From the IMG/VR virus record IMGVR_UViG_3300032132_000748: 64,000 nucleotides of DNA, one strand, 5' to 3'. Below, one piece after another: positions 15,687 through 60,834 of the stretch. Positions within the stretch are counted from its first letter, which is position 1. Every line of letters starts with the position of its first letter. Both the position numbers and the translations under genes were made by a program. The notes beneath the pieces are model-generated. The model was not told the origin of the DNA. It did no database searches and saw only the letters and a list, made by a program, of their open reading frames with translations. The stretch is from a virus. Taxonomy: Duplodnaviria > Caudoviricetes.

Positions 15687-16640
15687 ATGCTCAAACACAT
15701 AATAAAATCACAACAATTTAGTCCTGAAGAAATTCAGAAACTATTTCTACGTACTGCTCAAATGCAGCAACAGTTCATTAATCCTGTAGGAAGAACTGTG
15801 TTAAGACAAAGTTTCTTAACTAATAAATTGTTGTTTAACATTTTTTACGAACCTTCAACAAGAACTAGGTTTAGCTTTGCAGCCGCTGCCAACCATCTAG
15901 GTATGCAAGTAGTTGATACCGAAGCTGCTAATCATTTCTCGTCTGTGACGAAGGGCGAGACACTAGAAGATACGATAAAAGTTCTCTGTCAGTATTATCC
16001 CGATGCAATTGTTTTAAGGCACGATCAAACTGGCGCAGCCGAGCGTGCAGCGGCAGTAAGTAATTGCCCTATTATCAATGCTGGAGACGGAAAAGGGCAG
16101 CATCCCACACAGGCACTTCTTGATTTATATACTGTCTGGAAGCGGTTAAAAACTCTTAACGGTCTGACAATTCTAGTTGGGGGTGATCTTGCCCATGGAC
16201 GTACTGTGCGCTCCTTGGTTTATTTATTTTCCAAGTTCCAAGGAACTCAATTTATATTCTGTTCTCCAGAACAACTGAGAATGCTACCAGACATTAAAGA
16301 ACACTTGGAAGAAAATAACATAGTTTACACGGAAGTTTTTGAGAATGCTAACAAGGTTCTCCCTTTAGCTGATGTTGTCTATTGGACACGGGTTCAAGCC
16401 GAGCGAATTGAGGATCCAAACTTGGATCCCGAAGAACTTAGAAAACAATTTGTAATAAACACAGAGAGTATGGCTTTCATGAAACCATATTCTGTATTAA
16501 TGCACCCACTGCCTCGGGTTGGTGAAATTACTACCGACTGCGACCGAGATGTTAGGGCTGCTTATTTTGAACAAGCAGGTAATGGCATGTTTGTTCGGAT
16601 GGCTCTACTAGAGAACATACTTAAAAAAGACGGCATTTAA
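15687..16640 (+). CDS. pyrB: aspartate carbamoyltransferase catalytic subunit
   Basis: FYEPSTRTRFSF, KGETLEDT, NAGDG..HPTQALLD, MHPLPR. Confidence 0.95.
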   Translation: MLKHIIKSQQFSPEEIQKLFLRTAQMQQQFINPVGRTVLRQSFLTNKLLFNIFYEPSTRTRFSFAAAANHLGMQVVDTEAANHFSSVTKGETLEDTIKVLCQYYPDAIVLRHDQTGAAERAAAVSNCPIINAGDGKGQHPTQALLDLYTVWKRLKTLNGLTILVGGDLAHGRTVRSLVYLFSKFQGTQFIFCSPEQLRMLPDIKEHLEENNIVYTEVFENANKVLPLADVVYWTRVQAERIEDPNLDPEELRKQFVINTESMAFMKPYSVLMHPLPRVGEITTDCDRDVRAAYFEQAGNGMFVRMALLENILKKDGI

Positions 16641-17020
16641 TGAAATACACTAGAAAACTTAAAAAGAAAAAGAAACGAAGAATAGTTCCACCACAACAAT
16701 TAACTTTGTGGCCTTCGCTTACTACAACACCCGCCCCTTTAATTAGTGGTATAGGTTCAGCTATCCCTGCGAGAGGGGCAGATATCACCTTTTCTCCAGG
16801 TAAAGGCGAGAAAGGGATGCGCGATGGCAAGATCGGATTTAATGACGGCGATGGTGATGAGATTCTTTCCATCAATTCTGATAAAACCATTACAATTCTT
16901 GGAGAAACTTTTGACCTTCAAGAAGTCAAATCTTGGCTAGCTAAAACCTTTAAGTCCGGTGGATGCCAGTGCTCCTTAAAACAAATTATGAGCCAGGGGT
17001 GTGGTTGTGGCGGTAACTAA
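16640..17020 (+). CDS. hypothetical protein with C-terminal Cys4 tag
   Basis: ends CQCSLKQIMSQGCGCGGN. Confidence 0.75.
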   Translation: MKYTRKLKKKKKRRIVPPQQLTLWPSLTTTPAPLISGIGSAIPARGADITFSPGKGEKGMRDGKIGFNDGDGDEILSINSDKTITILGETFDLQEVKSWLAKTFKSGGCQCSLKQIMSQGCGCGGN

Positions 17021-17321
17021 AAAACTTCATAAACTTGAAGACGTACTAGACATAGTGGATCAATTATTAGCTGATGGTAAGATTGAAGAAGCTAATGCTA
17101 CTATCGATGACATTATGGATGCTCTCGGTGACAATGGCATAGACTTAATTAAAAAAGCAAAAGCTTTAGACGCAGAAAAAGACAAAACAAAAAAGGCCAA
17201 GCTGGCCAGAGAACTCAATATAGAGATGACTAAAGCAATTGTTGAAAAACTTGGTTTAGATAAATGTTCGTGTACAAGTGAAACTATATTTACTAAAGGA
17301 TGTATTTGTGGAGGAAAATAA
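17001..17321 (+). CDS. hypothetical helical protein with C-terminal Cys4 tag
   Basis: ends CSCTSETIFTKGCICGGK. Confidence 0.75.
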   Translation: MVVAVTKKLHKLEDVLDIVDQLLADGKIEEANATIDDIMDALGDNGIDLIKKAKALDAEKDKTKKAKLARELNIEMTKAIVEKLGLDKCSCTSETIFTKGCICGGK

Positions 17322-17526
17322 AGTATCAGCGGCTGAGTGGAAGGAGTTTATTTTAAATTACTATCTCCATAAATTAGAGCATATTCTCGAAGATGACCAA
17401 TATGTGATGGGCTCGGAATCTTCTGAAACCTTTGAAGAAAGGGTTTTTGATGAAGAAATTGACTACGACCAAATCACATTTAAGATCCACGATCAAATCA
17501 TGGAAAAAATCAGAGAAATATCATGA
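17278..17526 (+). CDS. small acidic hypothetical protein (start uncertain)
   Basis: fills the gap in a coupled gene run; ATGA overlap with the next gene. Confidence 0.55.
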   Translation: MKLYLLKDVFVEENKVSAAEWKEFILNYYLHKLEHILEDDQYVMGSESSETFEERVFDEEIDYDQITFKIHDQIMEKIREIS

Positions 17527-17912
17527 CCGTAAACGTTGAAGAAGAGGCCAAACGCTTTTGGCGGGAAATGAAGTTCAACAATATTTGTTGCAACGATAAA
17601 GATTGTAAAATGGATGTTGATCTAGTTGATGACAAAGTCGAAGTTAGCCTGGTTAAGCACAACTACGTTGTAACGATTCATAGAATTGAATCCATGGCAG
17701 GTATGGTCAACGTCAAAGATCCAGCTAAGTGGTGGGAAAGTGTAGGGACACTCTCCCACTCTCAAAATGAACTTAATTTTTGGAATAGGGTGGCCGAACT
17801 CTATCAAAAAATTCCTTTATGGATGTTTGAGTTCGAACTAGACGGGGATCACGCCTGTATCTGCGAAACAACTACTATAGTAGCTCAGGGCTGCCAGTGT
17901 GGAGGAATTTAA
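17523..17912 (+). CDS. hypothetical protein with C-terminal Cys4 tag
   Basis: ends CICETTTIVAQGCQCGGI. Confidence 0.75.
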   Translation: MTVNVEEEAKRFWREMKFNNICCNDKDCKMDVDLVDDKVEVSLVKHNYVVTIHRIESMAGMVNVKDPAKWWESVGTLSHSQNELNFWNRVAELYQKIPLWMFEFELDGDHACICETTTIVAQGCQCGGI

Positions 17913-18349
17913 TGAAAGCGTGGTATGTAGAAACCCCCTCTCGCCCTATTATACGGAGCAAAGAGGATTTTTCTAAGGATCACATAGAGAGAATTCCCAC
18001 CCATATGTCAATTCTCTATGAAGTAGAGATTCTAGAAGAAACGAGTAGGATCTCAGATAGGTCAAAAATTTGTCTCACGGAAGAAATTTGGAGGTCCCCA
18101 GAGATAAACGAGCGGGTGGGCTATGGCAGGTCGATCAACGGATCTCTAAAGGGCAACACCCTTTTTCTACCAAAAACAAATATCTTTTATTCTAGGATCG
18201 AAGCTATTCAAGAACATCAAAAAAGATGTAGAGAATTTATCCTAGAAGCAAGTGAGAGATGGAAAGCTCAAGCTGAAGTATTTCTTAATTACGATGATCA
18301 CCTAACAGATGCTAAATATACATCACCGTTTACAGGAGAAGAAAAATGA
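17912..18349 (+). CDS. hypothetical protein with C-terminal KYxSPFTxE motif
   Basis: GGAGGA RBS and TAATG coupling give start 17912. Confidence 0.7.
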   Translation: MKAWYVETPSRPIIRSKEDFSKDHIERIPTHMSILYEVEILEETSRISDRSKICLTEEIWRSPEINERVGYGRSINGSLKGNTLFLPKTNIFYSRIEAIQEHQKRCREFILEASERWKAQAEVFLNYDDHLTDAKYTSPFTGEEK

Positions 18350-18786
18350 AAACCTTTCTAATTATTCAGATGACTGCTGGTGAGTATGAACATGATGATG
18401 AGGAACGTCATATCGTATCAGGAGAAACTTTTGAAGAAGCCCTTAAGCAAACCTATTTACACGAGTCCATTGAAGAGTGGGTGGTTAACTTAAACCCAGG
18501 GGATCCCTGGCCAACAAACGTGGTCAAAGACTTGGGAGAGTGCTACCAACCTAGGATGGAAGTATATCAGATTGAAAAAGTTCTAGATAATAAAGAAGTT
18601 AAAGAGTCCCTGGATACTTATTTAAACGGGGTCTTAGCTAAAGCGGTAGAAGAAGAAAAAGTATATCAAGCGGAAGCCCCTAAGAGAGAAAAAGAAGCTA
18701 AGATGGAGGCCCTACAAAAGGCTGCAGCAGAGCTTGGTATGGATCTTAAACCGAAGAAAAAGAAAGCCGCTAAAAAGAAAGCCTAG
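18346..18786 (+). CDS. hypothetical protein with Lys/Ala-rich tail
   Basis: AGGAG RBS, ATGA overlap. Confidence 0.7.
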   Translation: MKTFLIIQMTAGEYEHDDEERHIVSGETFEEALKQTYLHESIEEWVVNLNPGDPWPTNVVKDLGECYQPRMEVYQIEKVLDNKEVKESLDTYLNGVLAKAVEEEKVYQAEAPKREKEAKMEALQKAAAELGMDLKPKKKKAAKKKA

Positions 18787-19055
18787 TGGAAATCAAGATA
18801 GGTAACACCTATAAGCTCTTTATACCCGCAGCAGCTATGAAAATTCTTAGCAAAAGCGCACGCCGTTACCATGAAAAAATAGTATTGGTATTGGATAGAA
18901 ATGAAGCCCTAAAATCTGTCCTAGTATCTATAAATCAAGGTGCTACGGGTATGTGGGTTGAGAGTTACTGGGTATGTCATATAAATGCCGACGGTAACTG
19001 CGGCTGTGACATAGAAATACTAGTCACTAAAGGATGTAAATGTAGTGGAAATTAA
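18786..19055 (+). CDS. small beta-rich (SH3/KOW-like?) protein with C-terminal Cys4 tag
   Basis: ends CGCDIEILVTKGCKCSGN. Confidence 0.7.
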   Translation: MEIKIGNTYKLFIPAAAMKILSKSARRYHEKIVLVLDRNEALKSVLVSINQGATGMWVESYWVCHINADGNCGCDIEILVTKGCKCSGN

Positions 19056-19057
19056 AT

Positions 19058-19576
19058 ATGCTAATTAAATCAAAAGAGTTTTATAAAAAAAATCCCATTT
19101 TCGAATTCCCTAAAGATTTGGACGATCCCTTAATAGATAACTTAAGAAGATACGTGTATCAAGAACAGATTACCTCCACTACAGAAGAGATCAAATGTAG
19201 GTGGATGGTCCCTTTCGAAGATGATAATGGTATCCTTAAGCCTCATTGGTCATCGTCTAGGTGGTATAGAAAACAACCGAACTATAGAGAAGTAAGTAAC
19301 CACTGCTTCTTTTCGGCGTTTCAGTTTTCTCATTTAACGTCCCAAGGTTCAAATAAATTTATAGATCTAGATGGCGACCCTGCATACATGTTCAACGGAG
19401 AGCTTAATGAAATTATTAAAAACAACTATCTTCTTGAAAATGGTTGGATTATAGGAAAATTCGCTTATGTTAAGCGAGGCTCAGAGTTAGGGCTACGCCC
19501 ATACAATCCTAGTAAAGATAAGTTGACCGGAAAAGATCCCTTCGCTAATGTTCAAACATCTGGGTCAACTGCATGA
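19058..19576 (+). CDS. hypothetical protein
   Basis: 172-aa ORF in a coupled run. Confidence 0.7.
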   Translation: MLIKSKEFYKKNPIFEFPKDLDDPLIDNLRRYVYQEQITSTTEEIKCRWMVPFEDDNGILKPHWSSSRWYRKQPNYREVSNHCFFSAFQFSHLTSQGSNKFIDLDGDPAYMFNGELNEIIKNNYLLENGWIIGKFAYVKRGSELGLRPYNPSKDKLTGKDPFANVQTSGSTA

Positions 19577-19908
19577 GAGAGATCTATTGGATTGATGAGT
19601 ATTGGGACAGCTCCATCAAGAAAAAATGGGATGCCATCTTTGCATCTTTAACTAATCCCAGAATAGAATTCTTTAGAACAGATCATGAAAACAAAGATGG
19701 ATGCTCTCACGACACTCTCGATCTTTGCAGAAAGAATTGGTGCTGGCTAACCCAAGATTTATCATCTATGTGTTTCTGGGATTCTCATGGAAGATGTTCT
19801 GGCGCATGCTTTGATCCAGACAATAATATGAGAAAAGATTGCGGATGCCTCTGCCACAAACAGAGAAAGAAAAAGTATCTGTCACCTTTTACAAATGAGT
19901 GGACCTAA
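19573..19908 (+). CDS. Cys-rich hypothetical protein ending KYLSPFTNEWT
   Basis: ATGA overlap; C-terminus shared with the next gene. Confidence 0.65.
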   Translation: MREIYWIDEYWDSSIKKKWDAIFASLTNPRIEFFRTDHENKDGCSHDTLDLCRKNWCWLTQDLSSMCFWDSHGRCSGACFDPDNNMRKDCGCLCHKQRKKKYLSPFTNEWT

Positions 19909-20164
19909 TGGACATATATAGATATGTTTCTGTAGATTTAAATTCTTCAGAAAAAATAATACAAGAAATACTTGCATCATCAATTACACCTATTTTAGAC
20001 AGTGTAGCCTTATTTGACGGTAACGTATTGTCAATAGCTTTTAGGGCTCCGCTCAGCAGTTGTGATCAAACAATTCTCCAGAAGATAGTCGCGGGGTATC
20101 AACCAAACAAAGTTCCTGTAAAAGAAAAATACATATCACCTTTTACAAATGAGTGGACCTAATG
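19882..20164 (+). repeat. 29-bp exact direct repeat flanking one gene
   Basis: TCACCTTTTACAAATGAGTGGACCTAATG at 19882-19910 and 20136-20164. Confidence 0.95.
19908..20162 (+). CDS. stand-alone copy of the EIxASSI domain found in the structural-cluster proteins
   Basis: QEILASSI...LSIAF...LS..DQTIL matches the N-termini of 33043 and 34404. Confidence 0.6.
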   Translation: MDIYRYVSVDLNSSEKIIQEILASSITPILDSVALFDGNVLSIAFRAPLSSCDQTILQKIVAGYQPNKVPVKEKYISPFTNEWT

Positions 20165-20530
20165 AGAGAATTTCCAACCAAGAACGGTAAGATTAACTTC
20201 GTCGATGAGGACGACACTCTTGTTGGGTTTGATAATCAAGCAAGCTGCTGCGAGAATTTTGGTTGGTTCTATTCCAAAGAAGTTCCAGTCAAACTTCCCG
20301 AAGAAAAAATAACTCCTGATCTTGAACCCTACTTTTTTAACAAAGGGTTCTTTGCAGAATGCTCCGATCCAGCTATCTTGGATGATGGAAAAATTGTAAC
20401 CTTCAGGTTAGAAATTAAAAATGATGATCAATATCTATATTTGTCGTTATATAACGCCCATAACGGATACTACTCTCATGGATTTAATTTAGCTGTAGGT
20501 GGAAAAGACCTACGAACAGGATCAATTTAA
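20162..20530 (+). CDS. phage-type hypothetical protein (CCE...NGYY)
   Basis: SCCENFGW and YNAHNGYYSHG motifs. Confidence 0.65.
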   Translation: MREFPTKNGKINFVDEDDTLVGFDNQASCCENFGWFYSKEVPVKLPEEKITPDLEPYFFNKGFFAECSDPAILDDGKIVTFRLEIKNDDQYLYLSLYNAHNGYYSHGFNLAVGGKDLRTGSI

Positions 20531-20967
20531 TGGGAATCGTCAAGGCTATCTACCTCCGACCAGAGCGCCACGCAGAGACTGTTTCGGTAGAGTCCGCGAA
20601 AGCAATTGTTGGCACAGGATTAGAGGGCGACCATTTTAAGAAGAAAAACGGATGTCGCCAAATTACCATAATGGCTCAAGCAGATTGGGACGCCGTCTGT
20701 AAAGATTTGGGTGAAGATTTGGATCCTATGACACGCCGTGCCAATTTATTAATTAACAATACTATATTAAAAAACACAACAGGTAAGATTTTACAAATAG
20801 GGGAAGTCGAGATTCAAATCGAAGGAGAGACCACACCCTGTAGAATTATGGATGAGGCCCATGACGGACTAAAGGCCGCATTAACTACTGAATGGCGTGG
20901 AGGAGTTTACGGAAAAATTATTACTACCGGTATAATAAGAATTGGAAACAAAGTGTCATTCAAATGA
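20530..20967 (+). CDS. MOSC domain protein (putative sulfur carrier)
   Basis: GLEGD, RQITI, RRANL, PC..M, RGG...G.I.IG motifs. Confidence 0.88.
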   Translation: MGIVKAIYLRPERHAETVSVESAKAIVGTGLEGDHFKKKNGCRQITIMAQADWDAVCKDLGEDLDPMTRRANLLINNTILKNTTGKILQIGEVEIQIEGETTPCRIMDEAHDGLKAALTTEWRGGVYGKIITTGIIRIGNKVSFK

Positions 20968-21452: not shown

Positions 21453-21491
21453 AAGGTTTAAAAATAGTTTTTAGATAGTAATATAGTAGGT

Positions 21492-23016: not shown

Positions 23017-23017
<1 letters not shown>
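22220..23017 (+). CDS. structural protein with a short collagen-like linker
   Basis: beta-rich domains either side of [10 protein letters not shown]; TAATG coupled to the fibre gene. Confidence 0.65.
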
Positions 23018-32235
<9,218 letters not shown>

Positions 32236-32239: not shown

Positions 32240-33040
32240 ATGCCGACAATAACAATATTGACAAACGCTAGCCAAGGAACTGATGTTCTTATTAGAGATT
32301 TAGGGATCGTAATTCCTGCTAGTGGAGGCTCTGAAACATTTACAGATAGAAATAATATCATTAAATGCAGTAGCTCAAGAAATCTACTAACCCTTGCTAC
32401 CGATGATGCTCACGGAGCAGGTAGCTCTACTCTTATATTGAATGATGGTGGTGGAAATATCGCTCAAGCCGACGCAGCAGAATTTTTAGACGCAATGCCA
32501 GCAGAGTATGTTGCATCTAACATAGGAACGGCCGGAGTTGGAGTTTTTGCTCAAAAAAATATAGGAACGTTTGAGTTTAAGAACGTTAATATTGGCTCAT
32601 CCCAGATGACCATATCTGACGATACAGGAAATGATGAAATAGACTTAGACGTTGATGGCGGCCAAATAACTGATGTTGGAGCTTTCTCTTCGGCGGCTTC
32701 AGCAGTTTCTGGGGGAGTTATAACAACAACCTCAAATACGGATGTCTTAATGACCGGAATGACAACTACACCTGGGGCGGGCACCTACTATGTAATAGTA
32801 TCGGGATCAGGGTTTATGAACTCTAACAACAAGAGCTTTTTTGTAACTATTTACTTTAATGGGGTAGCAGATGCTACCTCTATTAGAGAATCTGAAGCCT
32901 TGGACGCACTACCTTTCCTTTCGGTAGGTGTTGGGACAGTTGCAGCCGGTCAAACAATAGAAGCCAGATGGAGGGTTGATAACGGAACAGGATCTGTACT
33001 TCAAAACAGAAGTCTTGTTTGCGTAAAATTAACTAGCTAA
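32240..33040 (+). CDS. structural/fibre-associated protein
   Basis: Gly/Thr/Ser-rich; C-terminal beta domain similar to that of 33762. Confidence 0.7.
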   Translation: MPTITILTNASQGTDVLIRDLGIVIPASGGSETFTDRNNIIKCSSSRNLLTLATDDAHGAGSSTLILNDGGGNIAQADAAEFLDAMPAEYVASNIGTAGVGVFAQKNIGTFEFKNVNIGSSQMTISDDTGNDEIDLDVDGGQITDVGAFSSAASAVSGGVITTTSNTDVLMTGMTTTPGAGTYYVIVSGSGFMNSNNKSFFVTIYFNGVADATSIRESEALDALPFLSVGVGTVAAGQTIEARWRVDNGTGSVLQNRSLVCVKLTS

Positions 33041-33042
33041 TT

Positions 33043-33759
33043 ATGACAACTATATATTCATATGACATAACAAATGATCTTCCTGGCGGAAAAGTAAATA
33101 CTTCTACCCTCTTAGAGGAGATACAAGCGTCGTCTATTGTTACAACACTAGAAAATATTAGCACAAGTGGAGGAACATCAGAAGACGGGTTGATAACAGG
33201 GGGGACCCTAGATTTACATTTTGCGTCTGATCTCACGGCCCCCGAGAAAACCACCTTAGACGGAGATACAGCTAATCCAGCAGGAGGTTTGTTAGCAACA
33301 ACTACCCCCAAACCCACTACACAAGGTAATATCTTTTATGGTTATGACTCTTTAGGGGGCCAAACTTTTACTTCAGCGTCAATTACACTAAATATTGATC
33401 TAGAAACGATAAGTGACGCGTCAATGATTACACTATCTAATGATGTGATCACTTTTCATAAAAGCGGGACCTTTTTCGTTATTTCTAATATATCTATAGG
33501 CCAAACGTCAAACTCTAGAACTGAGTGGCGTGGGTACATGGAGATAGACGCAGGATCTGGATTTTCAGAAGTAATCGGTACACGAGCAGCAGGTTACTCC
33601 AGAAATGGGGCACAAGACGGGTCTACTGGATCTATTTCAACCGTATTAGACATAGAAGCAAATTCTGAATTTAGGGTAAGAGTAATGAGAGAGTCTGGTT
33701 CAGGAACTCTCAGCACTATCCAATACGGATCTAGATTGGTTATAGTAAAATTGAGGTAA
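33043..33759 (+). CDS. structural protein: EIQASSI domain plus C1q/TNF-like beta domain
   Basis: N-terminus paralogous to 34404. Confidence 0.65.
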   Translation: MTTIYSYDITNDLPGGKVNTSTLLEEIQASSIVTTLENISTSGGTSEDGLITGGTLDLHFASDLTAPEKTTLDGDTANPAGGLLATTTPKPTTQGNIFYGYDSLGGQTFTSASITLNIDLETISDASMITLSNDVITFHKSGTFFVISNISIGQTSNSRTEWRGYMEIDAGSGFSEVIGTRAAGYSRNGAQDGSTGSISTVLDIEANSEFRVRVMRESGSGTLSTIQYGSRLVIVKLR

Positions 33760-33761
33760 AC

Positions 33762-34340
33762 ATGACATATAAAAAAACTTATATAATCTCTACAGAAACA
33801 GCCAACGGAGTAGTTAGCAACACTACCCTACACGATGAAATCGAAGTTTTAGGTCTTACCGACTTCATTGGAGTTAGACCAGAAGGTCCAGATCAAATAG
33901 TAATTGAATTTGAAAATACTATTTCTGCCGGAGAATTAACGTCACTTAGTAATACGTTAGCGGGTCATGAAGGGGTAGATATACAAGTTCCTAGTCATGT
34001 AGAAGAAGAGGGAGATATAACCACTACAAGTAAATCATTTGTTATGGTTTCTGGGATGGCAATTACTCCGTATGCCGGTGATTATTTAGTTTATTTTTCT
34101 GGACAGATAAGCAACTCTTCAAAAAAGAAAACAACAAGTATGGCAATATTTGTCGATAATACAGCTCACTCTCAGTCAGAAAAGACGTTTAAAACCAAAT
34201 CAAATGGGGACGGAGCAACTTTTACTTGCATAGCAAAAATATCTGTTGATGGGAGTCAAATAGTAGAGGGAAGATGGGGAGTAACTGGAGGCACAGCAAC
34301 TATGCATGGAGGCAGACTCTTGAGTTTGGTGGAGGTATAG
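33762..34340 (+). CDS. structural protein (mosaic paralog)
   Basis: N-half resembles 33043/34404; C-half (GM.ITP.AG.Y.V..SG...RW.V..GT) resembles 32240. Confidence 0.65.
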   Translation: MTYKKTYIISTETANGVVSNTTLHDEIEVLGLTDFIGVRPEGPDQIVIEFENTISAGELTSLSNTLAGHEGVDIQVPSHVEEEGDITTTSKSFVMVSGMAITPYAGDYLVYFSGQISNSSKKKTTSMAIFVDNTAHSQSEKTFKTKSNGDGATFTCIAKISVDGSQIVEGRWGVTGGTATMHGGRLLSLVEV

Positions 34341-34403
34341 ATGGAGACTAATCAATCAACGAAAGAACTTGCTGCTATGGTCATAATAAGGTTATAATAC
34401 ATT

Positions 34404-35543
34404 ATGCCAACAGCTACTAAATATACATACTCAAAAGCTAGTGATTTCCCTGGCGGCGTTGTAAATACTACAAATCTCTCTGATGAGATACAGGCGTCGT
34501 CTATTGTTACAGCTCTTGATCGTATTGATACCGCAGGAGATGTAATTGATATTTGGTTCAAAGATGCACTATCTACAGCAGATAAAACCACACTAGACGC
34601 TGATACATCAGGACCTGCGGGGGGCCTAATTGCCGGGCATGACGGAGCACCTCTGGTAGAAGAAGCTACCCATGTAATTCTGGACCACAAACTAACCGGA
34701 GATAACCGTCTCCGTGTAGCTATGGAAAAATCTGACTCCACTGCATTTGATGCCTACTCCCACAACTGGGCCGATCCAACTACTTGGTATTTAAGTTCTG
34801 TTAGGGTAGTCGAGGAAGTAGCTACGGATTCCGGTGATCATATCACATACAACTTAGCAAATATAAATATCATTGATATGTATCATGGAAAATTAACAGG
34901 AGAAGATGATCTTCTCGACGCATCTTCTAATAGTTATCGAGTAACTGTCACCATAGACGATGTAGCTAAGACCGAACAAGACCCCCATTATGGGACCGGA
35001 GGAGATTATACTGTAGAATATGAAACAGGAAATATAGTAATGACTACCGCCTTAGCTGGATCTGAAGTAGTTAAAGTAACATATCACTATGCTACGGATA
35101 GTAAGTTTAAGATAATCCCAAATCCCGGAGAGAAAATAATCATTGAAGTTGCTGAAGTTCAGTTTGCTGATGATGTAGAGATAACAGATACTGTCGTGTT
35201 TCAAACATTCGGCTATGTTGACGTATTTGCTCCCCAATATTTAACAACAAATGGAGGCCCATACCCTCCCGGAACTAAAATACCGATTAGAACTTTTAAG
35301 TATAAGACGATGAGAGATTATCAAAACGCGGCCTTTAAGTCCTATCCCACTTGTCCTGCAATGGGGGGTGTTGATTGGAGAGGAATGCCTCGATCAGTTA
35401 TCGTTTTTGATTGGGATTATCAAAGAGGTATGACTTTACTTAGTTCTTACGGTATGGAAAGCCACCTATATCTAGAGCATGATGTTCCTTTTGGTGGTTC
35501 ATGGGCAACTGCAACCCTTTATTGTGGAATTGATACGGAGTAA
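34404..35543 (+). CDS. structural protein with N-terminal EIQASSI domain
   Basis: paralogous N-terminus; beta-rich. Confidence 0.7.
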   Translation: MPTATKYTYSKASDFPGGVVNTTNLSDEIQASSIVTALDRIDTAGDVIDIWFKDALSTADKTTLDADTSGPAGGLIAGHDGAPLVEEATHVILDHKLTGDNRLRVAMEKSDSTAFDAYSHNWADPTTWYLSSVRVVEEVATDSGDHITYNLANINIIDMYHGKLTGEDDLLDASSNSYRVTVTIDDVAKTEQDPHYGTGGDYTVEYETGNIVMTTALAGSEVVKVTYHYATDSKFKIIPNPGEKIIIEVAEVQFADDVEITDTVVFQTFGYVDVFAPQYLTTNGGPYPPGTKIPIRTFKYKTMRDYQNAAFKSYPTCPAMGGVDWRGMPRSVIVFDWDYQRGMTLLSSYGMESHLYLEHDVPFGGSWATATLYCGIDTE

Positions 35544-35545
35544 TA

Positions 35546-36298
35546 ATGGCATTTTTCTCAGCACCCTTAGACTTCTTCCTACAGATTAGAAAGAAAAAAA
35601 TAATGGGACACACACCTAAATCTTTAGGTGGTCTAAATCCAAGCACAGGAACCTCTTGGGAAACTATCTGGCCTGTAGGCGGGGTAATTACTTATCCGAG
35701 TTCATCCACACAACTAACTCTATCCAGCGACCATGCTGATGATACTAGTGCAGGAACAGGAGCACAAACAGCAAAAATTTCTGGATTAGATGATGAATTT
35801 AATGAAATATCTGAGGAGATTACTTTAAACGGTCAGACAGGAGTAACAACAGTTAACTCCTACTATCGAGTAAATAGTGTTTACTGTATGACAGCAGGAA
35901 GTAACGGCAGTAATAAAGGAAATGTTTACGCAGGAGAAGGAACTATAACAGCCGGAGTGCCTGCTACACCATATTGGTGTGTTCAAGCAGGAACTAATAG
36001 ATCAGGAACGGCCAGTTACACTGTGCCTATAGGTATGACACTATATATGATGAACTTAGAGCTTTCAAATACAAGCCTTACATCTGTAGCGTGTTTTAAA
36101 TTTGCTAAAACCTCTCCCGGAGGAATTCTTATGTCCTCAAATGTTTTTGCTTGTGCAAGCAATAGAGGTAAGGAACTTAGATCAGCGCCCGGTTTTGGGC
36201 CAGGAACAGATATCCAATTTATGAGTAAAGTTGATTCAGGGACTAGCACTAATTCTATATACGTCGAAACTATTTTAGTAGATAATAGGTCCGGCTAG
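35546..36298 (+). CDS. phage structural-type beta-sandwich protein
   Basis: SS...D...GTGA....I.GLD...EISE.ITLNG motif; last gene of the block. Confidence 0.65.
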   Translation: MAFFSAPLDFFLQIRKKKIMGHTPKSLGGLNPSTGTSWETIWPVGGVITYPSSSTQLTLSSDHADDTSAGTGAQTAKISGLDDEFNEISEEITLNGQTGVTTVNSYYRVNSVYCMTAGSNGSNKGNVYAGEGTITAGVPATPYWCVQAGTNRSGTASYTVPIGMTLYMMNLELSNTSLTSVACFKFAKTSPGGILMSSNVFACASNRGKELRSAPGFGPGTDIQFMSKVDSGTSTNSIYVETILVDNRSG

Positions 36299-39171: not shown

Positions 39172-39399
39172 ATGACTACTGGATATGAGGTTTTCCTGAT
39201 CGCTACACGCCCCTACCCTGAGAAGGCCCTGGGAACCGATGTAACGACGTTAGCCTCAAACTGTAGTAGGTATCAGCCCGGTCTTTTTTTCTACTCTGAG
39301 AGGGACGCCAGGGCTTACTACAACGAACTCCTACCGGAGACTAAGCTTACCTGTAAAATATACAGAAGCATTATAAATGTAGAGAAGGAACCTTTATGA
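39172..39399 (+). CDS. hypothetical protein
   Basis: leaderless-type promoter; ATGA overlap with the next gene. Confidence 0.65.
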   Translation: MTTGYEVFLIATRPYPEKALGTDVTTLASNCSRYQPGLFFYSERDARAYYNELLPETKLTCKIYRSIINVEKEPL

Positions 39400-39761
39400 A
39401 CATTGAAGATTCAAGAGCCATCGATAACGCACTCCAAGCTGCTTATCATGAAGTATATAGTGACGAATTAGGGCCAAAAACCCAAGAGAAGTTGATGGAT
39501 AAATTTTATGATCTAATTGACGCTACAGTATTTCCTGATGGTGAGAATGAACTGGACTTTGAGTCGGGAATTGAGTTAGGAATTAAACTATCTCAAAATA
39601 CAGCTCCCGGAGTTAAGTTATACAAAACAGCGTATGACCATCAGGCTTTTTACTTTGTAGGAACTGAAGACGAGATTGTTAAAAAGATAAATACAATTTT
39701 CGATTGTTGTTGCCCTACGGATGTTTTATTACGTAGTGGTTGTCAGTGTAATGGAAATTAA
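39396..39761 (+). CDS. hypothetical protein with C-terminal Cys4 tag
   Basis: ends CCCPTDVLLRSGCQCNGN. Confidence 0.75.
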   Translation: MNIEDSRAIDNALQAAYHEVYSDELGPKTQEKLMDKFYDLIDATVFPDGENELDFESGIELGIKLSQNTAPGVKLYKTAYDHQAFYFVGTEDEIVKKINTIFDCCCPTDVLLRSGCQCNGN

Positions 39762-40272
39762 AACTTATTCTTGCACGGGGCATCGCCCACACAAATTAAA
39801 CCAAGAGTATGATTACGATGGTCCCTGTACGAAATACGTCTACAAAGAGATATTACGTATTTTAGCTGAAGATTCTCCAGATGTCTGTATCAGTGGGATG
39901 GCTATTGGGGCAGACACCTTATTTGCTTTAGCCGCGCTAGAATTAGAAATACCATTGATTGCAGCTTTACCCTTTATCGGTCAAGAAAATCGGTGGCCAG
40001 AAAAATCTAAAAAAATATACCGTGAAATACTTAATAATCCCTTAACAACTAAAAAGGTTGTCAGTGAAGGAGGATATTCCGCGCACAAAATGCATTTAAG
40101 GGATATGTATATGGTAGATGAAGCAGATAAAGTTTTAGCTGTTTTTAATGGAACTAAGGGCGGTACTTATTACACCGTAAAGTATGCTATTAAAAATGAT
40201 GTTGATATCATCTACGTAGACCCTGACGCATGGAAAGAAAAAGATGAGGAACAGCTATCTTTATTTGACTAA
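39751..40272 (+). CDS. SLOG-superfamily protein (YspA/DUF1273-like)
   Basis: TGHRP, SGMAIGAD, RD.YMVD, GGT..TV.YA; ends QLSLFD. Confidence 0.88.
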   Translation: MEIKTYSCTGHRPHKLNQEYDYDGPCTKYVYKEILRILAEDSPDVCISGMAIGADTLFALAALELEIPLIAALPFIGQENRWPEKSKKIYREILNNPLTTKKVVSEGGYSAHKMHLRDMYMVDEADKVLAVFNGTKGGTYYTVKYAIKNDVDIIYVDPDAWKEKDEEQLSLFD

Positions 40273-45746: not shown

Positions 45747-45748
45747 AA

Positions 45749-49179: not shown

Positions 49180-50037
49180 ATGGCTAAGAAAAAATCAACA
49201 GAAATGGCTCTAGCAACAGTAGAATCATTGCTTCCAGCAAATATGGAGTTCGATCAACTTATTGAAAACCTAGAGGAAATGGATGAAGTCAATTTCCCTA
49301 GAATTTCGTTTAAGAATGGTCGATTTAAACTATCTAAAGACGACAAAGGAGCAGACGTACTTAAAGGTGTAATTCTTTTCCATGGTCGCCAGAACACATA
49401 TTGGGAGGGAACTTATGATCCCAACAATATCGTTCCTCCTGAGTGCTTCTCAGTGGATGGTAAGACTGGTTCTAAAGCACGAAATAGCAGCGGCCAATTC
49501 GGGTCTTGCCGTAGTTGTGCTTACAATCAGTTCGGCTCGGGTGCGGGTAAAGGCAAGGCTTGCCGCAACCAAAAGAAAGTTTACATACAGGTGCCAGGGA
49601 ACGCCGTTCCTTATACTTTGTTCTTAGCACCCACAAGTTTAACTGGTTTCAATGATGGATATATCATGAATAAGATTGTCCAAAAAGGCCACCAGTATTG
49701 GGCTGTTCTCACTACCTTTACCGCTTATCAAGAAGGTAACGACACTTACTTCAAAATATCATTCGAAGTAGATAGTTCCTTTGAGGGCGAAGAGAAAACT
49801 CAACTCAAAGAGTTGAGAGATTTCTGGATGCCAGCTATTAAAGCTGACAGAGCACAACTTGATGTTCCTGGCGGAGCAAGCAGTAGTAGCTCATCATCTT
49901 CGGAAGATGAATCCAGTGAGGAAAGCGAAGAGACTTCTACGAGAACGGTAGAAGCACGTAAACCGGCCCCCGTCTCTGCACCAGCAGCAGATGATGCTGC
50001 CAGTGATGAGATGGACGAGGAAGATCCTCCGTTCTAG
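49180..50037 (+). CDS. putative ssDNA-binding/annealing protein with Zn motif and acidic PPF tail
   Basis: C.S.DG..G...C..C..NQFGS..GKGKAC.N; ends EEDPPF; upstream of primase. Confidence 0.7.
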   Translation: MAKKKSTEMALATVESLLPANMEFDQLIENLEEMDEVNFPRISFKNGRFKLSKDDKGADVLKGVILFHGRQNTYWEGTYDPNNIVPPECFSVDGKTGSKARNSSGQFGSCRSCAYNQFGSGAGKGKACRNQKKVYIQVPGNAVPYTLFLAPTSLTGFNDGYIMNKIVQKGHQYWAVLTTFTAYQEGNDTYFKISFEVDSSFEGEEKTQLKELRDFWMPAIKADRAQLDVPGGASSSSSSSSEDESSEESEETSTRTVEARKPAPVSAPAADDAASDEMDEEDPPF

Positions 50038-55082: not shown

Positions 55083-56354
55083 GTGCCGATAATACATCTA
55101 GTTGCAGGTTTACTACCAATGAAAAAGTTACATATTATTAAGACCAAAGAATTTAAGCATGTTGATGCTAAGGCTCGTGGCAAAATTCTCCCCATTTTAG
55201 AGAAGGAGACATTGAGTTGGGCGAAGAAGGCCCAGCGTAAAGCCCACAAAGCTACCATCGAAATACAGAAGGAATTTGAAAAAAATCCTGACCCAGTTCG
55301 TAATAAGTATTTTAAATATTTACGAAAACTTCTTTTGATGAAACTAGAAGCGGTAGAGAACGAGTCTTGGGACAACAACAAGAAAGCTCCTGAGCTGGAC
55401 GAAGATCTAGTCAAGTTTTTAGAGATTGAATCTCTTCGGGTTCCTGAGCATATTTCTTGTAGTTCAATTGGCATGTATGAATTTTGTCCCCGCAAATGGT
55501 TCTATAGATATGCCCTTGGAGTTAAGTATCCTAAAACCACTGCACTCCATTTTGGGTCTGCTGTTGACGATGCTATTAACTATTACTTCGAGGAGAAGAT
55601 AGCAGGCCGACAGGCGACCTTGCAGGCCACTTACGACGAGTTCTTCAGAGTCTTCGACAAAGACGCTGACGAGGTTAACTGGGGCACTGACGACCCAGTA
55701 CAACTCCGACGTAATGGACCTATTATTCTTAAAAAGTATGTCGATGAATTTGATCGAATTACAGAACCAACCGGAGTTCAGACCGAGGTTAGAATACCTC
55801 TAGATAATGGCGGTATGTTACTAGGATATATCGATATTCTTGAAGCAACCGGAGTGGTCGATACTAAGACTGCTAAAAAGAAATGGACTACTGGAAGATT
55901 TGCTAAACACCTTAAGGAACTACAGCCTAAAGCGTATTCTCTATGGTTTTTGCAGGAATTCGAAAAGATGCCAACACAGTTTAGGTATCAAATCGTTACT
56001 AAAAAAACTAATGACAAGGGCGAAGCCATCCCGGAAACTCAACTCATCGACTTTACCATAAAGAAGTATGAGCTGGAAAGTTTCCGACGCCGCATCCAAC
56101 GTATTTGGGATGATATCATTGCCAGACTTAATACTAAAGACGCTAAAGGAAATCTTCGAGGAATAGATATGTTCCCAGCACAAGCTGAATACGGCCCTGG
56201 TGAAGGACGAGGCCCCGGTTGTGTAGATATAGGGGTGCTTTGCACAAAACAATGGTGTGATTATGCGGAACTGTGTGAAAAGAACGGACTTAAAATACCC
56301 ACTAAGTGGGTATCCAAAACCGCAGAGAAAAGTGGACATCACGTCTACGATTAG
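55083..56354 (+). CDS. PD-(D/E)XK nuclease (RecB/Cas4-like)
   Basis: CPRKWFYRY, FGSAVD, E, GYID...VVDTKT, LQ..AY, C...WCDYAELC; start uncertain. Confidence 0.85.
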   Translation: MPIIHLVAGLLPMKKLHIIKTKEFKHVDAKARGKILPILEKETLSWAKKAQRKAHKATIEIQKEFEKNPDPVRNKYFKYLRKLLLMKLEAVENESWDNNKKAPELDEDLVKFLEIESLRVPEHISCSSIGMYEFCPRKWFYRYALGVKYPKTTALHFGSAVDDAINYYFEEKIAGRQATLQATYDEFFRVFDKDADEVNWGTDDPVQLRRNGPIILKKYVDEFDRITEPTGVQTEVRIPLDNGGMLLGYIDILEATGVVDTKTAKKKWTTGRFAKHLKELQPKAYSLWFLQEFEKMPTQFRYQIVTKKTNDKGEAIPETQLIDFTIKKYELESFRRRIQRIWDDIIARLNTKDAKGNLRGIDMFPAQAEYGPGEGRGPGCVDIGVLCTKQWCDYAELCEKNGLKIPTKWVSKTAEKSGHHVYD

Positions 56355-56364
56355 GAGTATTGCT

Positions 56365-56586
56365 ATGAGTAATGAAGTAAAAATTAAAATGAAAAAATCT
56401 ACCCTTATTGCACTCCAAAAATTGGCAATGCGAAGAGGCCATACTCTTGAGGAGACTTTGCAGCACGCTGCCAGTACCGAAGTGTATATGGATGAGCGCC
56501 TTCGTGATGGTTGTTCTATTCTCTGTCAGGACCAAGAAGAGAATCTCTGGCGTGTGGTATTCTCACATATGAGAACCCAGGAGTAG
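56365..56586 (+). CDS. small ribbon-helix-helix-like protein
   Basis: AGGAG RBS before ATG; VKIKM...LQKLA..RG.TLEE.L..A. Confidence 0.55.
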   Translation: MSNEVKIKMKKSTLIALQKLAMRRGHTLEETLQHAASTEVYMDERLRDGCSILCQDQEENLWRVVFSHMRTQE

Positions 56587-56590
56587 CTCA

Positions 56591-56640
56591 TTGTGATGTC
56601 GGTGTCACCTGTTATTATCTAGTTAAAGGTTAGGTGATAC
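56591..56640 (+). promoter_or_regulatory. promoter inside an RBS-sequestering inverted repeat
   Basis: GTGTCACCT (56602-10) / AGGTGATAC (56632-40) flank TGtTATTAT. Confidence 0.6.
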
Positions 56641-58173
56641 GTGGCTGCTCAACTACGCGACAATAAATTGGATTTCTGGATCCAAAATAATTACAACGTT
56701 CTTTTCAAGGGCAAGCATGGGGTTGGTAAGACTTCTCTAATAATTCAAGCCTTTGATAGAAACAAATTAAACTGGAAATATTTCAGTGCTTCAACGATGG
56801 ATCCGTTCGTAGACTTCGTCGGAGTACCTAAAGAGGTTAAGGACGAAAAGGGTAATTCATATTTGGATTTAATTAGGCCAAAAGCGTTTCAGGACGACGA
56901 GGTTGAGGCTATTTTCTTTGATGAATATAACCGCTCACATAAAAAAGTCCGTAATGCTGTTATGGAGCTTATCCAATTCAAGTCTATTAACGGCAAGAAG
57001 TTTAACAACTTAAAGATAATCTGGGCTGCAGTTAATCCCGATGACGACGATACAGAAGATTATGACGTTGAAAAAATTGATCCAGCGCAGTTAGATCGTT
57101 TCCATGTCCACGTAGACGTTCCTTACAAGCCTGTTCTCTCTTACTTTACTTCCCAATACGGGAAGGAAGTAGCCGAAGCGGGATGTTCTTGGTGGAGTGA
57201 ACTCCCCAAAGAAATGCAAAATGCAGTCAGTCCTCGTCGTCTGGATTATGCCCTCAACATGCATAAAAATAAAGGTGATTTACGCGATGTATTACCTACA
57301 AAAAGCGGCATTAATAAATTACTGCTCACTCTACGAGATGGTCCAATTAAGAAAAAGCTTGAGAAGCTTATCAAAGCAGGCGATAAGGTAGAGGGACAGA
57401 AATTCATCTCCCAGGAAAATAACTATGCAGCAGCCATTCAATACATAACTAAAACTAAAGCTTTTAAAGAATTCTTCTTTCCCCTCTTGGCAGAAGAGAA
57501 GATAGCAAGTTTAATTGCTGAGTCTACGGCTCTTACAAAATATTTTGCTGAAAATTGCGGAAAAGTTGCGGTATATGAGAAGGTAATAAATAGCATTATC
57601 AAAGCAAATCAAAATAGAAAATTGATAGGTAACCTCAAAAAGCACATGCCTAAATCTATCAAGCGAAGAGCTACTGGGGTTCCCTGGTCTAAGCAAATCA
57701 AAGCCCTGCACGCAAGAAAGAGATACAACACACAACAACGAACTAAAATTTATCAAGAATTGTTACTAGAGATTCCAGATAATATGACTCTTAAAGAGGC
57801 GGAAGCCACTGTTGATTTAGTCAATAGCATTATAGATAGAAGTCATGCCTTCTCTGTTTCCAGAAACTTTCCAAAGATACCTCAGATATTGAGTATTTGC
57901 TTCAGTGTAATTGCACGAGATACTCAATACGCTACCATTGATGACATCATTAATTATAGAAACTGGTATGCCATTGCTCAAAAAGTGTCAGACAAGCAGA
58001 AGATTAAAATCGAAGCTCTGGCTCCGTATGCGCCTATTATCGCTCCAGGCTCTATAGCTCCTAAGACTATCAGTGCTGGAAATATTAAAGTCAGGCAGTT
58101 GATTAAATCTGCCAACTCTCTAGAAGATCTTATAGATAGTCTCGAAGATGACGACGAGGAGCCTCCTTTTTAA
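56641..58173 (+). CDS. MoxR/dynein-related AAA+ ATPase
   Basis: GKHGVGKT, FFDEYNR, AAVNP, DPAQLDRF, SPR. Confidence 0.88.
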   Translation: MAAQLRDNKLDFWIQNNYNVLFKGKHGVGKTSLIIQAFDRNKLNWKYFSASTMDPFVDFVGVPKEVKDEKGNSYLDLIRPKAFQDDEVEAIFFDEYNRSHKKVRNAVMELIQFKSINGKKFNNLKIIWAAVNPDDDDTEDYDVEKIDPAQLDRFHVHVDVPYKPVLSYFTSQYGKEVAEAGCSWWSELPKEMQNAVSPRRLDYALNMHKNKGDLRDVLPTKSGINKLLLTLRDGPIKKKLEKLIKAGDKVEGQKFISQENNYAAAIQYITKTKAFKEFFFPLLAEEKIASLIAESTALTKYFAENCGKVAVYEKVINSIIKANQNRKLIGNLKKHMPKSIKRRATGVPWSKQIKALHARKRYNTQQRTKIYQELLLEIPDNMTLKEAEATVDLVNSIIDRSHAFSVSRNFPKIPQILSICFSVIARDTQYATIDDIINYRNWYAIAQKVSDKQKIKIEALAPYAPIIAPGSIAPKTISAGNIKVRQLIKSANSLEDLIDSLEDDDEEPPF

Positions 58174-59495
58174 TGGACGCCATCGAAGAAACAACCATAT
58201 CTCCTGAGGAGTGGACAGAAATAAGTTCTCAGCTTGAGATACACCATGCTCTGTTTTATCAGTTATGGCAGATGGGTAAACCACTTTTTGATAAAAGTAT
58301 ACCAACTGCGGCTGTCCGGTTTAACCCCGAAGGGCAGCTTGTTGAATTTGTATTCAATCCAGATTTTTGGAATGAGCTTACGCTTACTGAAAAGAAATTC
58401 GTAATTTGCCACGAGTCCTTGCATGTGATATTTAATCACGGTCTGCGAATGATTAACACTAAACAAGGTAAGAAGTGTAACGTAGCGATGGATATCATAG
58501 TTAATCACTCTTTAGTAGATAACTTTGGATTTAAACGTAGTGACCTATCTATGGAAGCCAAGCTTTGTTGGATGGATACAGTCTTCAAGCCCGAGATAGT
58601 GGCTAAAATACCTACACGACAAACCTTTGAATTCTATTACCTTCTACTTAAAGACCCCGATAACTTGGCGGAAGGAAACCAACCAAGCGATGCAGACGGT
58701 TCAGGTGGCGCAGGCGGTTTGCCAGAGACACTCGATGATCACAGCCAACTGCCAGGTATGTCAAATCAAGACTGGGGCGAGGTAGTAAAAAAGCTTGACG
58801 AAACTCTATCTAATGAAGAGAAGAGTGGTATCAAGGATCTTGTGGAAAAACATACTCAGCTACCTAAGGACCAAAAGCCCGGAAAAGGTCGAGGCACTCA
58901 AGGAATGGGCGCTTGGCATTTTGTATCAAAGGATCCTGTTAAGAAAAAGAAAAAATGGGAAACGGTCATTAAAAAATGGTCGAAGAAATTCCTAAAAAAG
59001 GATATCGCTAGTATTGAACAGTGGGCCAGGATGGCTCGTAGATTCGCGCTTCTCCCTACTAATTTGATGCTCCCTTCAGAGGTCGATAATGATAGCTGGA
59101 GTCAGGATAGAATCCAAGTTTGGTTCTTTCAGGACTGCTCAGGATCTTGTATCGGACTGAAAGACAGGTTTTTTCGAGCAGCTAAGAGCCTCCCAAAAGA
59201 GCGATTCGATGTAAAAATGCACACCTTCGATACCCGAGTATTCGAGGTTGATATAAATCAAGGTAAAGTTCGCGGTGGCGGGGGCACTAGTTTTACATGT
59301 ATGGAACAGTATATACAACAGTATATGAAAAAACATAAAGTGAGTTATCCCAAGGCAGTTTTTATCATTACCGATGGCATGGGAAATAATGTAAGACCCC
59401 AACAACCCGAAAATTGGTATTGGTTTTTATCATATAATTATAGATATTGCATTCCCAAGGAATCACAAATCTTTATGCTAAATGAGTTTGAGTAA
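58173..59495 (+). CDS. HExxH metallopeptidase plus VWA domain protein (DUF2201-like), MoxR partner
   Basis: HESLH..NH, N.AMD..VN; MIDAS DCSGS, GGGT.F, ITDG. Confidence 0.88.
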   Translation: MDAIEETTISPEEWTEISSQLEIHHALFYQLWQMGKPLFDKSIPTAAVRFNPEGQLVEFVFNPDFWNELTLTEKKFVICHESLHVIFNHGLRMINTKQGKKCNVAMDIIVNHSLVDNFGFKRSDLSMEAKLCWMDTVFKPEIVAKIPTRQTFEFYYLLLKDPDNLAEGNQPSDADGSGGAGGLPETLDDHSQLPGMSNQDWGEVVKKLDETLSNEEKSGIKDLVEKHTQLPKDQKPGKGRGTQGMGAWHFVSKDPVKKKKKWETVIKKWSKKFLKKDIASIEQWARMARRFALLPTNLMLPSEVDNDSWSQDRIQVWFFQDCSGSCIGLKDRFFRAAKSLPKERFDVKMHTFDTRVFEVDINQGKVRGGGGTSFTCMEQYIQQYMKKHKVSYPKAVFIITDGMGNNVRPQQPENWYWFLSYNYRYCIPKESQIFMLNEFE

Positions 59496-59631
59496 ATCAC
59501 CCCCTTTTAAAAAAAGTTATACACTTAGAAAGATATTACCCCTTACTGTGATTAAAGTTACAAGAGTACAGCCCGTGTTGATCGGTTACACTTCAATTGG
59601 TAAGATACGGTAATAAAACACACGAATAAAA

Positions 59632-60630
59632 ATGAAAAATGATAAGGAGACTCCAATGAAAGTCGATCCAATACTAGATGTCTCGAATGACAGATTTACA
59701 ATGTTCCCAATTAAATACCCGAAGGTATGGGATATATACAAAGACCATGAAGCACTCTTCTGGACCGCAGAAGAAATAGATTTATCTAGTGATATAGCTG
59801 ACTGGCGAAGTTTAAATGACGGTGAACGACATTTTATTAAACATGTTCTCGCCTTCTTTGCGGCAAGTGATGGCATAGTTAATGAAAACTTAGCTATTAA
59901 TTTTTATACAGATGTCCAAATACCAGAAGCTCGTGCATATTATACTATGCAAATGCTTATTGAGACTATTCATAGTGAAACTTATTCACTATTAATAGAT
60001 ACTTACATCAATGATGAAAAAGAAAAACTTCACTTGCTACAAGCAATAGATACGATGCCTATTATTACTAAAAAAGGTGAGTGGGCACTAAGATGGATAT
60101 CCAAAAAAACCACTTTCGCAGAACGGCTTATGGCTTTTGCAGCAGTGGAGGGTATTTTCTTTAGTTCATCTTTCTGTTCAATCTACTGGCTCAAAGATCG
60201 TGGACTAATGCCTGGCCTGAGTTTTAGTAACGAATTAATTAGTAGAGACGAAGGAATTCATACTGATTTTGCTATCTTGTTGCACAACACACTGCAAAAA
60301 GAAAATAGAATTTCAGAGGAAAGAATACAACAAATATTTGGTGAAGCCGCTGAGTTGGAATGTGAGTTTGCAACAGAGGCTCTTCCTGTATCTATGATCG
60401 GGATGAACGAAAAGCAAATGCAACAGTATATCCAGTTTGTGACGGATAGGTTGCTTGTCCAGGCCGGAGCGAGTAAGCTATACAACGTGACTAACCCCTT
60501 TCCTTTCATGGAACGCATCGCACTACAGAACAAAACTAACTTCCATGAGAAGAAGGTGGCTGAGTACCGAAAAGCAGGGGTTGGAAATATGGCGGCTGCT
60601 CAGGAATTGAATTTCGACGAAGATTTCTAG
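59632..60630 (+). CDS. nrdB: ribonucleotide reductase class Ia beta subunit
   Basis: FFAASDGIVNENL, E.IHSETY, EGIFF, SRDEG.H. Confidence 0.97.
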   Translation: MKNDKETPMKVDPILDVSNDRFTMFPIKYPKVWDIYKDHEALFWTAEEIDLSSDIADWRSLNDGERHFIKHVLAFFAASDGIVNENLAINFYTDVQIPEARAYYTMQMLIETIHSETYSLLIDTYINDEKEKLHLLQAIDTMPIITKKGEWALRWISKKTTFAERLMAFAAVEGIFFSSSFCSIYWLKDRGLMPGLSFSNELISRDEGIHTDFAILLHNTLQKENRISEERIQQIFGEAAELECEFATEALPVSMIGMNEKQMQQYIQFVTDRLLVQAGASKLYNVTNPFPFMERIALQNKTNFHEKKVAEYRKAGVGNMAAAQELNFDEDF

Positions 60631-60639
60631 GAGAAAGTA

Positions 60640-60834
60640 ATGTGGAAAGTGTTCAAGAAACATAAGAAAAAATGGACTAAAGTTGAAGAACAAAAACTAC
60701 TTCAATTATTAGACGGATTAGTTGAAGATCTTGAAAAAGACGAAGACGAAGAAGACGAAGAAGATGAGGATAAGGAATGCTCCTGTTCGATTGCCGAGTT
60801 AATGAAAAAGGGGTGTCAATGTGGGGGTGTATGA
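60640..60834 (+). CDS. small protein with C-terminal Cys4 tag, between nrdB and nrdA
   Basis: AGGAG RBS; ends CSCSIAELMKKGCQCGGV. Confidence 0.75.
   Translation: MWKVFKKHKKKWTKVEEQKLLQLLDGLVEDLEKDEDEEDEEDEDKECSCSIAELMKKGCQCGGV

Follow-up and report, generated by a model that had tools for sequence, protein, structure and literature searches.

A portable four-cysteine mini-domain, probably metal-binding, on unrelated small proteins of phages

Six small open reading frames (ORFs) end in the same 18-residue tail, C-x-C-x8-G-C-x-C-x-G-x-stop, in a 64,000-nt stretch of DNA from the Caudoviricetes record IMGVR_UViG_3300032132_000748 (this whole stretch is called the window, and positions are counted from its first letter). 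Here, we report that this tail, or tag, belongs to a real, selected, and unnamed family of mini-domains seen only on phage-type DNA. Our preferred reading, to which we give a probability of about 50%, is that a Cys4 metal knot, probably holding Zn, on a flexible linker acts as a portable handle by which proteins dock on a shared partner, probably one of the host. Portable terminal metal-binding tails are a known kind of element, within which the four-Cys phage family is undescribed.

A six-frame search of the window returned exactly six matches to the pattern, all on the + strand, with the Cys/Gly spacing and terminal position that a first-pass annotation of this DNA had described. A looser pattern (spacer of 6 to 10, stop optional) found the same six only, so the window holds no internal copy. 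By chance, 3.7e-6 matches to the strict pattern and 1.4e-3 to the bare four-Cys core would be expected, under a simple model based on six-frame residue frequencies and for a pattern chosen post hoc. The six ORFs are tightly packed, encode 64 to 129 amino acids, and are each closed by the module. As the annotation stated, spacer positions 5-6 hold an I/L and a hydrophobic residue in all six tags, four of which end in GG-x; the ORF at 17001 is tagged as named, but its start moves to 17007 (104 amino acids) according to the database gene caller. BLASTP found no similarity among the six bodies, in line with the claim that they are unrelated. The claim that conservation acts at the protein level was also borne out by differing codons, since third positions at the invariant Cys/Gly codons agree in 46/90 pairwise comparisons among the six copies. 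A DNA repeat or recent duplication was rejected because of this low agreement.

Whether homologous bodies show selection on the tag had been left as a point on which the idea could fail. We found that the tag is under purifying selection. The gene cluster after pyrB is kept in sister phages, where all three orthologs of the 17523 gene (39 to 63% identical) are tagged. Among the four 17523-gene orthologs, the Cys/Gly residues are kept while 26 of 42 pairwise codon comparisons at these fixed sites differ, all synonymously, and 36 of the 66 other tag positions change residue. There are tagged homologs for the 16640, 18786, 39396, and 60640 ORFs as well (Table 1). The tag is also portable, as can be seen from 1) a body swap in the sister phage L401, whose syntenic slot of the 17001 gene holds a different body with the same tail, 2) one repeat-protein array with tagged and untagged paralogs side by side, and 3) the 321 tagged sequences fetched in total, which fall into 233 unrelated body families.

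Table 1. The six tagged ORFs of the window
Feature	Position	Strand	Tag	Remarks
126-aa ORF	16640..17020	+	16964-17020	Basic N-terminus, unnamed body; tag kept in the L401 (sister phage) ortholog and in P0076
104/106-aa ORF	17001..17321	+	17265-17321	L401 has another body with the same tail in this slot
129-aa ORF	17523..17912	+	17856-17912	All Cys/Gly kept in three orthologs, 39-63% identity
89-aa ORF	18786..19055	+	18999-19055	Ends Ser-Gly-Asn; homolog P0060 tagged
121-aa ORF	39396..39761	+	39705-39761	Ends Asn-Gly-Asn; homologs P0163-P0165 tagged
64-aa ORF between nrdB and nrdA	60640..60834	+	60778-60834	Homologs P0089 and P0112 tagged

We assessed how widespread the module is with a hidden Markov model (HMM) built from 26 tags and modeled on the GGx-stop form. 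A search of 1.84 billion proteins yielded 813 clusters (at 50% identity) with E ≤ 0.001. Among the best 150 of these 813 clusters, 149 contain the motif, 144 end exactly three residues past the last Cys, and the median length is 106 amino acids. Bodies almost never match Pfam or PHROGs, with about 1 in 10 starting like a KOW/SH3 barrel. GC contents of the carriers lie between 27 and 68%, and their sizes between 85 and 859 kb. Two protein searches of the GenBank phage collection turned up a single convincing carrier, the uncultured LR756511.1 (595 kb), which has four matches at the module spacing. Neither that collection nor a search of Myxococcus phage Mx1 gave a cultured carrier. Cellular genomes gave 26 matches in 596 Gb versus roughly 13 expected by our own estimate, and the one real-looking match is on a phage-like contig. 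A phylum-level check, made for the phyla of a Geobacter metagenome-assembled genome and of a Pirellulaceae one, gave 0/401 and 1/401 genomes, respectively, which is not above reversed-pattern controls. Judging from these searches, the module appears at chance level in cellular genomes, and the family was found here only in phages. A cellular origin was looked for and not found.

The module matches no described family in the resources searched. Neither the six proteins nor sets of 26 to 150 tags matched a Pfam, PHROGs, or NCBIfam family, and profile searches of the PDB returned nothing. Fold searches in the PDB, BFVD, and Atlas gave no significant match, a result of little weight for a 30-residue model, and an ESM Atlas feature search returned one weak unnamed viral cluster. 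A literature search, thin on subscription journals, found the motif described nowhere. The proposal that the tag is not a named domain but an undescribed, portable, protein-level module on unrelated bodies is thus upheld. Two observations belong beside these counts. A 61% GC metagenomic contig has eight tandem genes with related small bodies, all tagged (L228:10830-13333). An unrelated, abundant family, at L003, L005, L010, and about 30 similar viral loci, has an internal CxC-x8-GCxCGG 13 residues from the end; it lacks the hydrophobic pair and was left out of all counts as a different Cys-rich motif.

The first-pass annotation had described the tag as 18 invariant residues with the stop at a fixed +3, which holds for the six window copies but not for the whole family. 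In a scan of viral contigs, the four Cys, the hydrophobic pair, and the inner Gly were the sole requirements, and no stop was needed. By our own reading, this produced about 33 real-looking unique hits, of which 11 end at +3, 17 end 2 to 21 residues later, four lie internally or at the N-terminus, and one is truncated where its contig ends. The proposed strict C-terminal position is therefore a strong bias rather than a rule. Most of the longer forms belong to a second subtype, G-[AQH]-[IMF]-x-[RK]-E-[RK], which has no GG, looks like a further helix, and is about as common as the GGx-stop pattern (24 versus 30 stretches). Four proteins have two tandem copies in one chain, and some copies carry one extra spacer residue, the usual nine residues between the pairs being rarely 8 or 10. 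The conserved unit is thus a domain of 15 to 18 residues, for which GG is dispensable, as is a free carboxyl end at a set distance. We also considered a ribosome-arrest peptide but abandoned it: such a reading supposes a constant distance from the stop, which the extended and internal copies do not keep. Separately, in small proteins at L348:4095-4298 and L352:987-1295, the module lies N-terminally or centrally and precedes a charged helix and a G-V-x-Y-x-E-R motif common to both; the tail may derive from such a stand-alone form.

In 159 tagged proteins, the Cys at all four positions and the Gly that precedes the second pair never vary. Position 4 of the tag is mostly D/E/P/S/N, residues typical of a helix N-cap, position 5 is I/M/L, position 8 is L in 86%, position 9 is M in 79%, and position 14 is K/Q. 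The tail is mildly basic. The 15 residues upstream are rich in Pro, Lys, and Glu, with Pro making up 11% of this linker versus 5% of the bodies; in the 60640 ORF, a short N-terminal segment is followed by an acidic linker and then by the tag. AlphaFold modeling had been suggested for the tag. The AlphaFold2 model made from the 60640 copy (150 sequences) predicts a helix at tag positions 5-10, with a mean predicted local distance difference test (pLDDT) score of 75.5 and 88 over most of the core. A hydrophobic 19-mer, as in a membrane or signal segment, is present in 0/159 tagged proteins versus 102/806 small, crudely called ORFs of the same phages (p = 7e-9). Because none has such a segment, the tagged proteins are probably cytoplasmic. 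Cys pairs in the cytoplasm usually bind metal rather than form disulfides, so this location favors metal ligation. We therefore share the earlier suspicion of a metal site, on the strength of the four invariant Cys and the cytoplasmic profile: the module is predicted to bind metal through its four Cys, which we consider likely, and the metal would with somewhat better than even odds be Zn rather than Fe or Cu.

The terminal Gly codons can have a second use. In the 17523 ORF, the Gly-Gly codons read GGAGG directly before the overlapping ATG of the next gene, and GGA-GG is a Shine-Dalgarno sequence at the right spacing for a following ATG. GGA encodes the first terminal Gly in 55/120 tags versus the inner Gly in 32/133 (p = 3e-4), and it does so in 33/52 tags with an ATG immediately after versus 19/65 without (p = 3e-4). 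These biases suggest that the GG codons can double as the Shine-Dalgarno of the next gene. Since the GGx-stop end is also kept with GGT/GGC codons and without a closely following gene, selection acts at the protein level too.

We looked for a phage-encoded partner in five other tag-bearing phage records (G001-G005), three of which are at least 90% complete. The first-pass annotation had linked the tag to IscS, BFD, MOSC, ClpC, and HslV-like genes of the window, a link that finds no support, since none of these proteins has a tblastn match in the five records; in LR756511.1, only the N-terminal 145 residues of ClpC are matched. No JAB protease was found in the three near-complete phages, which by BLASTP share one small gene family only, dUTPase-like, and have one tag copy each. 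A phage-encoded partner is less likely because these carriers share no dedicated gene. The major capsid protein of one carrier is 80.8% identical to its Mx1 counterpart, so at least one carrier probably infects Myxococcota. Mx1 itself has no tag copy. The tag is thus accessory and depends on no detectable machine encoded by the phage.

Among known systems, the tail of SecA consists of a flexible linker and a CXCX8C(H/C) domain that binds SecB and ribosomes (PMC6620043). The phage tag resembles it in having about 20 residues, four ligands, a CxC opening with an eight-residue spacer, and a C-terminal position after a linker whose flexibility we judge from composition. It departs from the SecA ligand pattern in its second pair, G-C-x-C in 159/159 proteins versus an adjacent C(H/C), and in its spacer, a hydrophobic helix versus the basic GSGKKYK loop, and, unlike SecA/SEC-C, it is found in phages and not in cells. 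The SEC-C motif of the SecA metal-binding domain (Pfam PF02810) occurs on unrelated proteins too; it had no match at E ≤ 1 among 150 family members. By analogy, the phage tag would work like a SecA/SEC-C tail without being a member of that family. CopY also has two CxC pairs in a C-terminal extension, CXCX4CXC, which binds Zn(II) or Cu(I) (PMC11672702). However, four residues lie between its pairs versus nine in the phage tag, and it occurs on one (MecI/BlaI-type) repressor family rather than on hundreds of unrelated bodies. The SWIM zinc finger (PF04434, CxC-xn-CxH) shares the CxC opening followed by a second C-x-ligand pair, but its fourth ligand is His where the phage tag has Cys in 159/159, and the phage tag is much shorter; weak SWIM scores were obtained for 4/150 members (best E 0.004) and none for the other 146.

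We favor a docking handle as the explanation for these features, at the even odds given above. The tail would be a small self-contained folded domain rather than a linear end-signal, with a single metal ion, most likely Zn2+, enclosed by the two CxC pairs. Between the pairs, a six-residue helix would be opened by the N-cap residue at position 4 and ended by the invariant Gly, offering a conserved hydrophobic face (positions 5, 8, and 9: I/M/L, L, and M) next to basic residues, with the L-M face exposed. Tethered by the flexible Pro/Lys/Glu-rich linker at the end of soluble accessory proteins, the domain would bring unrelated bodies to one common partner, probably a host component, as the SecA tail is brought to SecB and the ribosome. 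The GGx-stop form would be this domain cut at its last residue, and because its GG codons may supply the Shine-Dalgarno of the next gene, it would make a convenient gene-end cassette. Portability speaks for this reading, with its unrelated body families, body swap, tagged and untagged paralogs, and tandem copies, and so do the invariant Cys and helix-ending Gly with the near-fixed L and M, the purifying selection, the cytoplasmic profile, the predicted helix, the Pro-rich linker, the lack of a dedicated gene common to the near-complete carriers, and the SecA precedent. Several points weigh against it. The metal, the structure, and the partner are inferred rather than observed, and so is the convergence of the four Cys on one site. 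Instead of contacting a partner, the M-rich face could form the core of the mini-domain or serve in self-association, BLASTP may miss a distant gene shared among carriers, and a host is suggested for one carrier only, in Myxococcota. Of the modular addressing tag first proposed, the portable, undescribed, and probably metal-binding module on diverse bodies thus survives, while its ties to a terminal signal and to window genes are not supported.

Other explanations fit less of the evidence. In a rather unlikely one, metal-bridged self-association, the CxC pairs of two chains would share metal, dimerizing the body or joining different tagged proteins of a phage in mixed assemblies, with no host partner. 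CxC pairs do bridge chains in CopY (PMC11672702), although with a different spacing, and tags cluster in tandem genes, up to eight per array, as well as in tandem within one chain; but mixed networks cannot be the general role because the three near-complete phages have one copy each. We also think it unlikely that the tail is a partner-free end cap, that is, a metal knot shielding the C-terminus from proteases, or a redox- or metal-dependent stability switch, that spreads via the Shine-Dalgarno it carries. The strong C-terminal bias would fit a cap, as would the GGA enrichment at the first terminal Gly, mostly with an ATG directly after. Such a cap does not account for a GGx-stop that persists with GGT/GGC and without a close downstream gene, nor for the extended subtype without GG, and the near-fixed L-M exceeds its needs.

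Roles tied to phage particles, clusters, or processing enzymes fare worse. In phage T4, the capsid targeting signal sits at the N-terminus, contains no Cys, and is removed as the head matures. A packaging signal of this kind, loading diverse cargo into the head, was among the options first listed for the tag, and we regard it as very unlikely. It is true that both are single short conserved sequences on diverse small phage accessory proteins, that the tagged bodies are small, soluble, and diverse, and that diverse T4 internal proteins share only the targeting sequence (PMC3012670). Unlike the T4 signal, however, the same tail crosses phages with few genes in common and with sizes from 85 to 859 kb, and it is absent from Mx1 despite the tagged relative with a near capsid protein. 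That the tag is an iron–sulfur (Fe-S) cluster site supplied by the IscS, BFD, and MOSC of the phage is highly improbable, since these genes, whose presence in the window together with the four Cys recommended the idea, were found in none of the five other tag-bearing records. We know of no Fe-S motif with the spacing of the module; host Isc could supply a cluster to the tag. Hardly credible, finally, is terminal processing, whether by JAMM-protease cleavage of a GG-x precursor followed by conjugation, by lipidation at a CaaX-like site, or through a degron for the viral ClpC or HslV-like protein. The 144/149 top HMM hits that end three residues past the last Cys, mostly in GG-x, would suit it, but that HMM was trained on the GGx form, and only 11 of about 33 hits end there in the unbiased scan. 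GG and a fixed C-terminal distance are not required, which argues against lipidation, ubiquitin-like conjugation, and a degron alike, as first listed: the common subtype without GG continues as a helix, and copies are also seen internally, at the N-terminus, and in tandem. Ubiquitin-like and sulfur-carrier proteins need an obligate terminal GG on a beta-grasp body with E1/JAMM partners, whereas the phage tag has a large subtype without GG, unrelated bodies, and no JAB protease in three near-complete carriers (no E1 search was made). CaaX needs a Cys at -4 and two aliphatic residues, whereas the tag has Gly-Gly, Ser-Gly, or Asn-Gly and a variable distance to the end. ClpC and HslV had no match in G001-G005.

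The small genes of huge phages mostly lack an assigned function. At least 813 otherwise unrelated clusters are tied together by one 18-residue module, so identifying its metal and partner would give a common mechanism for many unannotated genes. A more tentative extension of the docking handle, which we think possible but doubtful, is a shared address at which hundreds of unrelated accessory proteins, including those of Myxococcota phages, dock on one conserved host machine. A phage would then make a new effector by joining any body to the tail, with the ribosome-binding site of the next gene built in, and docking on a host machine would show phages assembling new effectors from parts. If the tail were only a stabilizing knot, it would still be a tiny metal-binding domain new to Pfam, PHROGs, and NCBIfam. 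The tag can be synthesized and tested without phage culture, and the carrier close to Mx1 makes Myxococcus xanthus usable as a laboratory host for pull-downs.

The tagged proteins are encoded on ENA contig ERZ27248692 k141_839137 of 858,992 bp (859,269 bp in a second record), whose gene content is phage-like, with primase, exonuclease, HslV-like peptidase, and ribonucleotide reductase. Within 10 kb beyond the window ends there are three further canonical copies and one degenerate copy without the fourth Cys, so the source genome carries at least 10 copies, including the degenerate one. The latter lies about 5 kb before the window start (L322:2517-2987) and has a His near the end as a possible substitute metal ligand. 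Searches with PyrB and NrdA gave no host assignment for the source phage. The largest phage genome has been given as 735 kb (PMC12607003), a size that the source contig exceeds, although its length is that of an assembled contig and not of an established single complete genome.

Several other features of the window deserve mention. A second common C-terminal tail, KY[TLI]SPFT, is found on three ORFs of the same cluster (18314-18349, 19873-19908, and 20127-20162), two copies having a near-identical stretch of about 30 bp that spans the stop and the next ATG, and on several neighboring genes in the sister phages L401, L403, and L405. The C-termini at 39721-40272 (QLSLFD) and 10721-12718 (QGGLF, in an SNF2-type helicase) resemble sliding-clamp binding motifs, and the acidic tails at 49180-50037 and 56641-58173, ending in DPPF and EPPF, resemble the C-terminal tip of single-strand binding proteins. 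At 3861-5160, a pair encoding a BFD-like ferredoxin and an IscS-like desulfurase is on the reverse strand amid forward-strand genes. An AAA ATPase gene adjoins a DUF2201 putative metallopeptidase gene at 56641-59495, a MoxR/vWA-like pair. The ORFs at 1733-2671 and 10077-10667 have a similar leader, D-x-R-L-x-x-L-x-R-x-A-R-x-G-D, with a related start in sister phage L403 (L403:11125-11874). Finally, a 3072-residue protein at 23017-32235 consists mostly of Gly-X-Y collagen-like repeats and is followed by several probable structural genes (32240-36298).

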